This document shows, one piece after another, positions 6,859 to 13,338 of a DNA stretch of 15,890 bases; position 1 is the first letter of the stretch, and every line of letters begins with the position of its first letter. Under the pieces are notes generated by a model. The model did no database searches. It was not told where the DNA came from and saw only the letters and a list, made by a program, of their open reading frames with translations. The stretch is from a virus. Taxonomy: Duplodnaviria > Heunggongvirae > Uroviricota > Caudoviricetes. A program made the translations under genes and the position numbers. Location of the stretch: IMG/VR virus record IMGVR_UViG_2700989168_000009. One strand, given 5' to 3'.

Positions 6859-7686
6859 ATGCAGAGAATAATCGAATTACGCCAGCAGAAAACCGCCATT
6901 AAAAATCAGATGCGCGACATGCTGGAGAACGCTGAAAAAGAAAACCGCAGTCTTAACGATGCTGAGGGCGCAAAATTTGACGAATTACGCGCTAAAGCTG
7001 AATCCCTCGATAAAGACATTTCCCGCCTTGAAGCCATTGCAGACGAAGAGCGCAGCAAGCCAGGTAAAAGCAGCCAGACCACTGACCCCGCAGAACTACG
7101 TAACTACATTCTGACCGGTGAAACCCGCGCATTAAGTACAGGCGTTCCCGCTGATGGTGGTTATACCGTTATCCCTGAACTGAACACCGAAATCATGCGA
7201 ATGCTGGCGGATGAATCCACCATGCGTCGCATCTGTACCGTGAAGAAAATCAGCAGCAACGAGTTTAAGCAGCTTGTTTCCGCTGGCGGTGCGACCGTTA
7301 ACCACGGTGAAGAGGGTAAGGCACGCGAACAGACCAGCACCCCGCAGATTAACGAGGTGAGCATTAAGCTGTATCCGGTCTATGCGTACCCGCGCACCAC
7401 ACAGGAAATCGTGGATTTTTCCGATGTGGACATCCTTTCATGGCTGACGGGTGAGATTGGCGACACCTTCACGGAAACCGAAGAAAGCGATCTGGTTGTG
7501 GGCGACGGTGACAAAAAAGCAAAAGGTTTTTTATCCGTACCCCGTGCAGAGAAGAACGACAAAGAGCGTGATTTTGGTACGTTGCAGGTAATTAAACCTT
7601 CCGAATCTCTGGCGTGGACATCTGCGGACCCGCTGATCGACCTGAAATTTGCATTACGTAAAAAATACCGCAAAAACGCGGTCTGA
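6859..7686 (+). CDS. HK97-fold major capsid protein, N-terminal segment (delta/scaffold domain plus first part of the capsid domain); ends at an in-frame TGA (7684-7686)
   Basis: N-terminus MQRIIELRQQKTAIKNQMRDMLENAEK...LRAKAESLDKDISRLEAIADEE is a coiled-coil delta domain. VVGDGDKKAKGFL matches the conserved GDG loop of Phage_capsid-family proteins. ATG 6859 is preferred over the ORF-track GTG at 6811. The same frame continues after the TGA. Confidence 0.75.
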   Translation: MQRIIELRQQKTAIKNQMRDMLENAEKENRSLNDAEGAKFDELRAKAESLDKDISRLEAIADEERSKPGKSSQTTDPAELRNYILTGETRALSTGVPADGGYTVIPELNTEIMRMLADESTMRRICTVKKISSNEFKQLVSAGGATVNHGEEGKAREQTSTPQINEVSIKLYPVYAYPRTTQEIVDFSDVDILSWLTGEIGDTFTETEESDLVVGDGDKKAKGFLSVPRAEKNDKERDFGTLQVIKPSESLAWTSADPLIDLKFALRKKYRKNAV

Positions 7687-8016
7687 GTGGTTAACTCCAC
7701 GACGGCGGCAAAACTTCAGAAGGTGAAGAACGCGAACGGTGATTATATCTGGCGCGACCGTTTACAGGCGGGTGATCCTGATACGTTGCTGGGCCTTCCG
7801 GTCGAATATCTGGAGTTTATGCCTGATAACGTTATTGCCCTGGGTGACTTCAAACGCGGTTACTACATTGTTGATCACGAAACAGGTGTTCGCACCAGAC
7901 CGGACAACCTGACAGAACCAGGATTCATCAAAATTTTCACGCAAAAATATTTAGGCGGTGGCGTGGTGGATTCGAACGCGATCAAGATTCTGGCACTGCC
8001 GGAAGACGACGATTAA
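7687..8016 (+). CDS. HK97-fold major capsid protein, C-terminal segment (same frame, downstream of the in-frame TGA); with 6859-7686 it forms one capsid gene of about 385 codons
   Basis: LLGLPVEYLEFMPDNVIALGDFKRGYYIVDHETGVRTRPDNLTEPGFIKIF...GGVVDSNAIKIL matches the conserved C-terminal region of HK97-family capsid proteins. Begins at GTG 7687 immediately after TGA 7684-7686. Stop TAA 8014-8016. Confidence 0.7.
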   Translation: MVNSTTAAKLQKVKNANGDYIWRDRLQAGDPDTLLGLPVEYLEFMPDNVIALGDFKRGYYIVDHETGVRTRPDNLTEPGFIKIFTQKYLGGGVVDSNAIKILALPEDDD

Positions 8017-8027
8017 CAGCATACAGA

Positions 8028-8055
8028 AGGGGCTAAAAAGCCCCTTTAGTGTTTT
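8028..8055 (+). terminator. Rho-independent terminator/attenuator between capsid and protease genes
   Basis: AGGGGCT-AAAA-AGCCCCT perfect 7-bp stem (8028-8045) followed by TTAGTGTTTT. Confidence 0.6.
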
Positions 8056-11092: not shown

Positions 11093-11258
11093 GCGGGAAC
11101 AAAACCGCCTTATCCGTGGACTTATAAGGCAGCGTGACGCATGGAAGACACAGGAAACAGGGCATAAAGATAAAGCGTCAGGACGCGCAGAACGCATCAC
11201 AGCGAAGCGATTAACCGACCGTGACCGCGAGGTTATGGAATGTTTCCGCAATCGCTGA
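11076..11258 (+). CDS. Hypothetical small basic protein, about 57-60 aa
   Basis: ORF MTLMNEREQNRLIRGLIRQRDAWKTQETGHKDKASGRAERITAKRLTDRDREVMECFRNR (alternative ATG at 11085). The upstream part of ORF-track entry 10917..11258 overlaps HNH out of frame. Weak SD. Confidence 0.3.
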   Translation: MTLMNEREQNRLIRGLIRQRDAWKTQETGHKDKASGRAERITAKRLTDRDREVMECFRNR

Positions 11259-11336
11259 TGAGGCTGTATGACGGGGTGGGGGGCGTTTTCAGGACAAACC
11301 CGACCCCGCCTACCTGGATGATATCGCCGTGAAGCA
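11259..11336 (+). other. Intergenic region upstream of terS with a G-rich/C-rich dyad; candidate cos/packaging recognition region
   Basis: CGGGGTGGGG (about 11273-11282) can pair with CCCGACCCCG (about 11300-11309) in 9 of 10 positions. Position between HNH and terS corresponds to the cos location in HK97-like phages. Confidence 0.3.
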
Positions 11337-11693
11337 GTGGCGGGGAAAAACGCGGNNNNNNNNNNNNNNNNNNNNNNNNNNNNNNNNNNNNNNNNNNNNN
11401 NNNNGCGGCAGCTTGCGGAACGGGGAGACCTGACCCCCGCCGACTGGAGCAATCTGGAACTGTATTGCGTCAACTACTCCATTTACCGGAAAGCCGTTGC
11501 AGACCTTGCGGCGCGCGGGTTCAGCATTGTTAACAGTCAGGGCGGCGAGAGCAGAAACCCCGCATTAAGCGCAAAATCCGACGCTGAAAGAGTGATGATA
11601 AAAATGGCCTCCTTGCTCGGTTTTGACCCGATAAGCCGCCGTAAAAATCCACCGGAAACAGAAGAAGAGGACGAGCTTGACCGCCTGGAATAA
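11337..11693 (+). CDS. terS: Terminase small subunit (P27 family), GTG start, interrupted by N-run 11356-11404
   Basis: MAGKNA ... LELYCVNYSIYRKAVADLAARGFSIVNSQGGESRNPALSAKSDAERVMIKMASLLGFDPISRRK resembles P27-family small terminases. Upstream in-frame ATGs hit stops, so GTG 11337 is the only open start. Stop TAA 11691-11693. Confidence 0.7.
   Translation: MAGKNAXXXXXXXXXXXXXXXXXRQLAERGDLTPADWSNLELYCVNYSIYRKAVADLAARGFSIVNSQGGESRNPALSAKSDAERVMIKMASLLGFDPISRRKNPPETEEEDELDRLE
11356..11404. other. Run of 49 N (unknown/masked sequence) inside terS
   Basis: Literal n characters in the sequence. Confidence 0.99.
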
Positions 11694-13338
11694 GTACGCA
11701 GAAGACGTAAAAACGGGCAAAATTCCGGCCTGTAAACGGTTAAAACAGGCTGTTAAACGGTACTTTTCGGACCTTAAAAGCCCCCTTTACACGTTCGATC
11801 GTGAGGTTGTGGAGCGGTTTATTGCCTTTTCCAGGGTGTGCCCGCACGTAAAAGGACCGATGCGTGGCAGACCCATTGAGCTGGAGCCGTGGCAGCAGTT
11901 CGCCTTTGCGTGCATCCTCGGCTTTAAGGTTAAGGCCACCGGACGGCGCAAATACACGAGCGCCTTTATCGAAGTGCCGCGCAAAAATGCGAAATCCACG
12001 ACCGCCGCGATTCTGGCTAACTGGTTTCTGATTATGGAGAACGGTCAGCAGGATATCTACACCGCAGCGGTGAGCCGTGACCAGGCGCGGATCGTGTTTG
12101 ATAATGCGCGTCAGATGTGCCTTTTATCCCGACCGTTACGCAGGCGGGTGAATATTCAGGCGCATAAGGTGATACACCCGAAAAGCAACAGCCTGTTAAA
12201 GCCGCTGGCAGCAAAAGCGGCAACCATCGAGGGGACAAACCCCAGTCTTTCCATCGTGGACGAATACCACCTACACCCCGATAACGGCGTTTATTCCGCG
12301 CTTGAGCTGGGGATGGGCGCACGTCCCGAAGGGCTGTTATTTGCCATTACCACATCGGGCAGTAACGTCGTTTCAGCCTGTAAACAGCACTATGATTATT
12401 GCTGCCAGATCCTGGACGGCGAAGAGGTTAACGATTCAATTTTTGTACTGATTTACGAACTGGACGACGAAAACGAGGTTGATGATCCGGCGATGTGGAT
12501 AAAGGCGAACCCTAATATTGATGTTTCCGTGGATCGTGAAAAACTGGCCTCAACCATCCAGAAAGCGCGGGGTATTCCGTCGCAGTGGGTGGAGATGATG
12601 ACAAAGCGATTTAATATCTGGTGTCAGGGGACTACCCCGTGGATGGGTAATGGTGCATGGGCTGAGTGTGCCGGAACGTTCACGGAGGAAGATTTACACG
12701 GTCAGGAGTGTTACGCGGGGCTGGACTTATCATCAACCAGCGATATTTCCAGCGTATGCTATGCCTTTCCGGTCGGTAAAACCATTATGCTGATTTCCCG
12801 TCATTATCTGCCGGAGTTCCAGCTACAGAACCCCGCCAATAAAAACCGCGCTGTCTATCGCCAGTGGGCTAAAGCGGGCTGGATACGCACAACGCCAGGT
12901 GACTGCATTGATTACGACCGGATCAGAGATGACATCATGCAGGATGCGGAGAAATTTAATATCAGGCTGGTGGGCTTTGATACGTGGAACGCCACGCATC
13001 TCAGGACGCAATTACAGGGGGCTGGTTTTGAGGTGGAGCCGTTCCCGCAAACCTACCTCAGATTCAGTCCGGCGGCGAAATCGTTCGAAGTTTTTGTTAA
13101 CCGCAGGGTGATTGTGCATCGTGGCGATCCGGTGTTGTCCTGGTCGATGAGTAACGTCGTGATGCAGAGTGACGCGAACGCCAATATCAAGCCGAACAAG
13201 AAAAAATCACCGAACAAGATAGACCCGAGCGTAGCGGCGCTGATGGCGTTTGGTACATTCCAGGCAGAGCATGAGGATTTTGCTTTTGATATAAGCGACA
13301 GCCACCGCCAGAAACTGGAAGAATTTAGCGGGGTGTAA
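11677..13338 (+). CDS. terL: Terminase large subunit (ATPase/nuclease), 553 aa, probable TTG start
   Basis: ORF track 11677..13338. The frame opens after TAA 11632-11634 and has no ATG before codon 62. TTG 11677 is preceded by SD GAGGA (11667-11671). Size, position after terS, Walker-A-like GLDLSSTSD and nuclease-region acidic motifs. Overlaps the terS 3' end by 17 nt. Confidence 0.88.
   Translation: MTAWNKYAEDVKTGKIPACKRLKQAVKRYFSDLKSPLYTFDREVVERFIAFSRVCPHVKGPMRGRPIELEPWQQFAFACILGFKVKATGRRKYTSAFIEVPRKNAKSTTAAILANWFLIMENGQQDIYTAAVSRDQARIVFDNARQMCLLSRPLRRRVNIQAHKVIHPKSNSLLKPLAAKAATIEGTNPSLSIVDEYHLHPDNGVYSALELGMGARPEGLLFAITTSGSNVVSACKQHYDYCCQILDGEEVNDSIFVLIYELDDENEVDDPAMWIKANPNIDVSVDREKLASTIQKARGIPSQWVEMMTKRFNIWCQGTTPWMGNGAWAECAGTFTEEDLHGQECYAGLDLSSTSDISSVCYAFPVGKTIMLISRHYLPEFQLQNPANKNRAVYRQWAKAGWIRTTPGDCIDYDRIRDDIMQDAEKFNIRLVGFDTWNATHLRTQLQGAGFEVEPFPQTYLRFSPAAKSFEVFVNRRVIVHRGDPVLSWSMSNVVMQSDANANIKPNKKKSPNKIDPSVAALMAFGTFQAEHEDFAFDISDSHRQKLEEFSGV

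Follow-up and report, generated by a model that had tools for sequence, protein, structure and literature searches.

Phage satellites and tailed prophages share many of their structural genes, and the stretch of DNA analysed here raises the question of which of the two it belongs to. The window (the whole stretch of 15,890 nucleotides, IMG/VR record IMGVR_UViG_2700989168_000009) carries, between positions 6859 and 13338, a head and packaging operon in which the capsid gene comes first and the terminase genes last: is this a rearranged satellite module or a captured phage fragment, and can it still work? The region very probably represents the operon for head assembly and DNA packaging of a capsid-forming phage-inducible chromosomal island (cf-PICI) of the Gammaproteobacterial EcCIEDL933 type, residing in Shigella flexneri as an inactivated copy. 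The architecture itself is already known, as a cf-PICI hallmark published in 2022-2023 and built into SatelliteFinder. The additions made here are modest, namely a candidate cos motif and the evidence of a disabled S. flexneri allele.

Identity and boundaries of the island

The window consists of Escherichia/Shigella chromosomal DNA, in which the island extends from base 1 (integrase) to attR and is followed by phoQ. In S. flexneri genomes (e.g. CP001383, strain 2002017) the island occupies the roxA-phoQ intergenic region, and the window is 99.9-100% identical, outside four runs of N, to the S. flexneri loci and to S. flexneri SFBU1023. Thousands of assemblies contain the exact portal protein of the window, and the three of these loci that were examined are S. 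flexneri or near kin; the terL DNA of the window was found in 534 of 5426 complete E. coli genomes. The att core is a 21-bp direct repeat, present on both sides of the island in an identical S. flexneri locus (L006), where the repeats enclose 14.16 kb, the true size of the island being ~14.2 kb; attL is situated shortly before the first base of the window, and the same core flanks the O157:H7 locus. The right-hand boundary is made up of two features:

14329..14349, + strand, attR core CGGTGTAGTTAATGGTGTAGT, the 21-bp direct repeat of L006 and of the O157:H7 locus
14430..15890, - strand, phoQ, host gene on the right flank of the island

The cf-PICIs have been described as elements of 10-18 kb with integrase, regulation and replication modules, and without lytic genes or a complete tail module. 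The gene order published for those of Gammaproteobacteria is that of the window, and their prototype is EcCIEDL933 (Alqurainy et al., bioRxiv 10.1101/2022.09.08.507074), with a published size of 15.4 kb. The island, bounded by att repeats, falls within this size range (about 10-18 kb), and Pfam assigns to it an integrase, AlpA regulation and primase replication; the packaging genes are all there and in order, though capsid and terS are disrupted. In Pfam and PHROG, the open reading frames (ORFs) from int to attR matched no tail or lysis family, most of them being assigned to some family (the small ORFs 1851-2594, 1846-2172, 13798-13989 and 13943-14116 had no match in either); as far as these two collections reach, the island has neither lytic genes nor a complete tail module. 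Judged by the identity gap described below, its capsid and TerL belong to a satellite-only clade. Scans of the window for tRNA genes and Rfam families found nothing.

As a stand-in for EcCIEDL933, the element of O157:H7 strain 86-24 at roxA/phoQ was used, whose ~15.25 kb fit the published size. Both elements have the same attB, att core and gene order, as well as a small ORF after HNH and a 93-aa ORF after terL; their integrases are 100% identical and their packaging proteins 96-100% identical. Because of this shared site and these identities, the window belongs to the lineage of the prototype cf-PICI, as its S. flexneri allele. The replication modules differ: the primase of the window is a 582-aa D5_N/DUF5906 protein, whereas the O157:H7 element has a 710-aa DUF927 protein, and the island lacks the SSB and PerC genes and is ~1 kb shorter. 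The Shigella allele also differs in a stop codon at W276 of the capsid and in the deletion of 97 bp containing the cos-like motif and the terS start. The classical PICIs of E. coli (EcCICFT073, EcCIED1a) resemble the island in their int-alpA-primase left arm and helper-dependent lifestyle, the left arms of classical PICIs and cf-PICIs being reported as identical in some cases. They are, however, devoid of portal, connectors (head closure and adaptor), terL and a full capsid gene, "forbidden" PICI components in SatelliteFinder, and the window has portal, connector/adaptor and terL.

The head and packaging operon

All genes of the module lie on the + strand, and their assignment by Pfam and PHROG gives the order capsid, protease, portal, head closure (Hc1), adaptor (Ad1), HNH, small ORF, terS, terL, just as the original prediction, made from the letters of the window, had read it. 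The tight couplings which it reported are also there: ATGA overlaps at 9897 and 10232, and TGATG at 10590-10594. The features are:

6859..8016, + strand, HK97-fold major capsid gene, pseudogene (PF05065)
8026..8047, + strand, GC-rich hairpin and T-run, terminator-like attenuator directly 3' of the capsid gene (arms GAAGGGGCT..AGCCCCTTT)
8056..8676, + strand, prohead serine protease (S78), true length 190 aa (PF04586)
8689..9900, + strand, portal, intact (PF04860; exact protein in S. flexneri genomes)
9897..10235, + strand, head closure Hc1 (HK97 gp7-like), ATGA overlap with portal (PF05521, phrog_25)
10232..10594, + strand, head-tail adaptor Ad1 (gp6-like), true length 98 aa (PF05135, phrog_40)
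10594..11092, + strand, HNH endonuclease, true gene 146 aa, intact (PF01844, phrog_144, on the L006 copy)
11076..11258, + strand, conserved 60-aa ORF overlapping the HNH stop (phrog_3173; in most Enterobacterales relatives)
11273..11310, + strand, remnant of the cos-like region: G-box GGGGTGGGGGGCGTTTTCAGGAC and deletion junction CCCCGCC (11304-11310), the next 97 bp of intact relatives missing
11311..11693, + strand, terS, P27/Terminase_4 family, 5'-truncated (PF05119; without ATG and first 10 codons)
11677..13338, + strand, terL, intact, 553 aa, 17-nt overlap with terS (PF03354 + PF20441; 98.7% identical to the O157:H7 copy)

Of 84 distinct relatives, 65 have an equivalent of the hairpin after the capsid gene, with varied loops, and in HK97 a terminator is annotated at the equivalent place after its own capsid gene.

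Lesions and artefacts in the Shigella copy

The four N-runs of the window are located at 8579-8631, 10393-10511, 10866-10915 and 11356-11404. The first, third and fourth are pure insertions, with nothing missing in complete S. flexneri genomes, and in the second 119 N stand in for 53 real bp; their flanks contain poly-G and poly-A errors, e.g. GGCGGGGGGGGGGT for true GGCGGT. Judged by alignment with the complete genomes, the runs give the genes for protease, adaptor, HNH and terS false lengths or frameshifts. Thus, the apparent frameshift of HNH comes from a poly-G together with the run 10866-10915, and a 113-aa ORF at 10917-11258 is likewise an artefact. Two other readings of this region were discarded: that the runs are one-for-one masks, with a frameshifted HNH and a long protease and adaptor, is ruled out by the 100%-identical complete S. 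flexneri genomes; and GTG 11337 is ruled out as the start of terS, since its apparent frame is an N-run artefact and the true frame is startless after the deletion.

The capsid ORF, in turn, has an in-frame TGA at 7684-7686 (TGG to TGA, W276 stop), which splits it into 275 + 109 aa. Trp276 is kept in 155 of 161 homologues, and the stop codon is found only in the window and four S. flexneri loci. Moreover, by comparison with E. coli RM6927 and the O157:H7 element, all Shigella copies have lost the 97 bp between two CCCCGCC repeats, and with them the ribosome-binding site, ATG and first 10 codons of terS and most of the HNH-terS spacer; the terS remnant is left with 108 aa, starting with "LDDIAV", versus 118 aa in E. 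coli. Because of the W276 stop and the deletion of the cos-like core and the terS start, the S. flexneri copy is probably a relic that decayed recently and became fixed in this species, likely unable to package itself. The capsid stop, the four N-runs and the deletion of the terS start had gone unremarked in the original prediction, and its implicit assumption of a working module fails on the capsid nonsense codon and the deletion of the cos-like site and terS 5' end. Excision and replication may survive in this copy, and capsid formation and packaging are predicted to be lost, as are the helper-induced small capsids that would package the island and take up helper tails.

A candidate cos site between HNH and terS

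No other non-coding sequence of the family is as conserved as the spacer separating HNH (or the small ORF) from terS. In this spacer a G-box, GGGGTGGGGG, is followed by ~35 variable bases and the motif ACCGCCCGCCCCCTCAAATTTTTACGCACGG..ATTTTTTTGAAAATAA, after which comes the terS start. The motif is conserved across E. coli, Haemophilus and Gilliamella, and its 20-nt core is found in at least 120 IMG/VR contigs, invariably at the HNH-terS spacer position. When the ends of HK97 are joined, a similar layout is seen (G-box, ACCGCC.., T-rich tract), in which the physical end ..ACCGCCGCCAAA/GTTTGAATTTAACGC (the slash marks the end) aligns with CCCCCTC/AAATTTTTACGC; the record of Yersinia phage YeP1, which also has a P27-family TerS, starts with GTCAGATTTTTATGCG. 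Further, the break in LR881103, a linear, virion-derived record, falls inside the spacer, of which ~69 nt are absent. The DNA of cf-PICIs has been reported to have cohesive ends (cf-PICI preprint), and no statement of where cos is located was found in the two cf-PICI preprints searched. Because the spacer is conserved, aligns with the HK97 ends and contains the LR881103 break, and because cohesive ends have been reported, we infer that it is the candidate cos site of cf-PICIs. In the window the motif core is absent even when 3 mismatches are allowed, the G-box alone having been kept.

Could the copy still serve a function?

A functional cf-PICI, the module of which still makes capsids and packages the island, is very unlikely. 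Eight of the ten module genes have remained intact, with 96-100% identity to those of the O157:H7 element, and the G-box half of the spacer has been kept; but the capsid ends at residue 275 of 385, at the conserved tryptophan, terS has neither ATG, ribosome-binding site nor its 10 first codons, the motif core has gone, and the published set of EcCIEDL933 mutants which abolish transfer includes both capsid and terS. In that set, mutation of each gene of the packaging module abolished transfer of the island, except for gene 1792 (severe reduction), and the helper, of which only the tails are needed, was unaffected.

Several points nevertheless weigh against an inactivated copy of the EcCIEDL933 type. 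The comparator is not EDL933 itself, and the cos assignment rests on conservation and likeness to the HK97 ends, not on mapped termini. Read-through of the UGA, or an internal GTG start in terS, could leave residual activity. Finally, portal, Hc1, Ad1, HNH, terL, int and primase are intact, which fits very recent decay or continued selection.

Continued selection would correspond to an exapted relic, the intact portal, HNH, TerL and connectors of which are kept in S. flexneri against incoming HNH-cos phages or for other host use. Only three lesions and no further decay are seen, in a lineage which accumulates pseudogenes, and 4 independent assemblies share the very same lesions; but the same pattern is equally expected from recent inactivation in a young clonal lineage, and EcCIEDL933 reportedly hardly affects the fitness of its helper; exaptation is extremely unlikely. 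That these intact genes still serve the host is more speculative than the cos reading. The boldest proposal, which is improbable, has two parts, namely (a) that the 70-nt spacer is the cf-PICI cos, with ancestry and layout in common with that of HK97, and (b) that the intact remainder is kept for host use, e.g. interference with HNH-cos phages. The decayed relic remains the preferred reading.

Gene order in relatives and in tailed phages

A genome scan with one genome per species gave 80 loci, from Enterobacterales, Pasteurellaceae, Gilliamella and Aeromonas. The order capsid-protease-portal-(Hc1)-Ad1-HNH-(small)-terS-terL was found in every long-enough locus, and the canonical phage order in none of the 80; the window order also occurs in all 120 of the IMG/VR loci listed, of which there are at least that number. 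When compared with the phage collection, TerL matched four records at 69-82%, namely vB_KppS-Ant, Pmp7 and Pmp8 (10.7-16.5 kb) and one 106-kb record, followed by a gap to ~36% in real phages. The capsid gave 59-66% to vB_KppS-Ant, Pmp8, the 106-kb record and a 3.8-kb record, and then at most ~40%. The two satellite-sized records with annotation that was read have the gene order of the window; the 106-kb "Klebsiella phage P12620-1", the genes of which are unannotated, could be a composite.

By capsid similarity, the true phages nearest to the window are HK97, Pseudomonas phage VW-6S and Yersinia phage YeP1 (33-37% identity), all with the order terS-terL-portal-protease-capsid-adaptor-head closure, then tail genes: this is the canonical order which the original prediction had ascribed to HK97-like phages. 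HK97 and the HNH-dependent cos phages (Kala et al. 2014, as cited in the cf-PICI paper) have in common with the island the HK97-fold capsid, S78 protease, portal and gp6-/gp7-like connectors. Unlike HK97, the window has capsid-protease-portal and Hc1-Ad1 instead of portal-protease-capsid-Ad1-Hc1, with the block placed upstream of HNH, it is without tail, lysis and lysogeny-switch genes, and its proteins are only ~33-37% identical. The order cannot be obtained from that of HK97 by circular permutation, because capsid-protease-portal and Hc1-Ad1 are each reversed, with orientation kept.

The original prediction had also considered HNH next to terS as non-canonical and as a sign of HNH-assisted cos cleavage. 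The second part agrees with the published model, in which the HNH mutant of EcCIEDL933 abolishes transfer. The first does not stand: in HK97, no gene lies between HNH and the right end, so that in the circular form HNH is directly upstream of cos and terS. The arrangement HNH-cos-terS-terL is thus common to both, the island having HNH, small ORF, terS and terL in succession, and only the morphogenesis block is permuted.

The remaining alternative, an ordinary HK97-like tailed prophage which has lost its tail and lysis genes and been scrambled (a captured fragment), is exceedingly improbable: all module proteins do come from phage families, baseplate genes lie 540 nt after terL in one relative and single tail-related genes follow it in a few, but order and size are identical over ~200 loci of many genera, the island has att-repeat bounds and a PICI-type int-alpA-primase left arm, the identity gap to every real phage is large, the flanks of 24 loci (134 ORFs, 25 commonest Pfam families shown) contain mainly primases and host genes rather than tail modules, and the published trees of cf-PICI capsid and TerL form satellite-only clades. 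Targeted scans around the relatives revealed no contiguous tail module, only isolated tail-related genes and one baseplate fragment. Since it is uniform in relatives and absent from true phages, and the published clades are satellite-only, the capsid-first order is, on the loci compared, a hallmark of the lineage and not a trait of ordinary tailed prophages. The proposal of a compact, rearranged satellite module, rather than a captured fragment, is therefore borne out in the loci compared, although it had already been published: satellite-like records and ~200 loci share the order, true phages have the canonical one together with tails, and among the 80 genome loci the order was not common in ordinary tailed prophages.

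Also among the closest known elements are KpCIDSM30104/"Escherichia phage vB_KppS-Ant" (LR881103) and Pasteurella Pmp7 and Pmp8, with the same order, 10-17 kb, and the TerL and capsid identities given above. They differ from the window in their integrases and in the accessory genes after terL, and their copies are intact. In the Klebsiella element a 765-aa ORF without Pfam match follows terL, in the slot which in other relatives holds a tape-measure gene.

Several other genes were observed in this accessory slot or near it. In three loci (L212 10001-13465, L107 10217-13657 and L026 11674-13971) a full-length tape-measure gene of the HK97 type (TMP_3 + Phage_HK97_TLTM) starts 14-17 nt after terL, and nucleotide similarity to real phages of 37-50 kb is confined to this ORF; it looks like a single-gene cassette, odd for a satellite that is said to take its tails from a helper. 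The slot holds a gene with a lambda tail-assembly-I domain in Rahnella (L016 11674-12267) and an HK97 gp10-like gene in Rodentibacter (L082 11690-12259), and an annotated tail terminator adjoins the capsid gene in Pasteurella Pmp8 (L010 14914-15321). The baseplate genes mentioned above (Baseplate_J and Mu gp48; L057 12195-13711, Symbiopectobacterium) make this the sole locus with an abutting tail-module fragment, which may be an adjacent prophage remnant. In one isolate (L211/L126 ~1-3850) the element carrying the tape-measure gene, otherwise identical, is joined inside the capsid gene to Mu-like genes (DUF3164, GemA, Mor), and this junction could have arisen by insertion of a transposable phage or by recombination. 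Finally, an AIPR gene (abortive-infection type), likely defence cargo in the accessory slot, comes right after terL in Yersinia aleksiciae (L070 11765-13498, - strand).

Genes and repeats outside the module

The left arm (int, AlpA, DUF4222 and D5-type primase) is PICI-like. The features outside the head and packaging module are:

1..1230, + strand, tyrosine integrase (Pfam Arm-DNA-bind_3 + Phage_integrase; 100% identity with that of the O157:H7 element, which occupies the same attB)
1605..1793, + strand, AlpA-type regulator/excisionase (Pfam Phage_AlpA, E = 5e-18)
3471..3770, + strand, DUF4222 protein overlapping the primase start (Pfam annotation in relative L004; phrog_285)
3767..5515, + strand, primase/replicase (Pfam D5_N, DUF5906, Pox_D5)
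6619..6643, + strand, iteron-like repeat TTGTTCCACGTTGTT with 10-bp period, two copies upstream of the capsid operon
13352..13633, + strand, conserved 93-aa ORF 3' of terL (phrog_1561)

The stretch 1851-2950, 3' of alpA, is unlike that of E. coli relatives, contains poor ORFs only and has no Rfam match; in relatives this region holds icd-like genes, one of them an annotated pseudogene, and in the window it is probably a region of further decay or variable cargo. Additional copies of TTGTTCCACGTTGTT are located after int (1278-1322, - strand) and beside attR (14297-14311, + strand), with 8 matches in the window versus 0.59 expected, and these repeats might serve as arm sites for the integrase, as an origin or as sites for a regulator. 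A scan of the window for sigma-70 promoters gave fewer matches than shuffled sequences.

Proposed mechanism

In working cf-PICIs, according to the published cycle, a helper phage would induce the island, which is excised by Int and AlpA and replicated by the primase, with expression of the operon. Capsid, protease and portal would then build a small procapsid, while TerS, TerL and HNH would recognize and cut cos so that unit-length island DNA is packaged; the site on which these three act is presumed to be that of the HNH-terS spacer. Hc1 and Ad1 would close the head and form the docking surface for the helper-derived tails. The capsid-first operon and its conserved terminator-like hairpin may provide the high capsid-to-portal ratio needed for the shell. 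In the present copy, the 97-bp deletion between the CCCCGCC repeats and the W276 stop would inactivate the module.

Significance

Runs of N in draft assemblies can mimic frameshifts, and complete genomes are needed as a check. Annotation pipelines and satellite finders would score this island as a cf-PICI though packaging has probably been lost, and the HNH-terS spacer may be of use as a simple sequence marker, both for the likely cos and for the intactness of a cf-PICI copy. If the spacer is cos, the S. flexneri island would be a naturally arisen mutant, cos-minus and capsid-minus, that became fixed in a lineage of pathogens.

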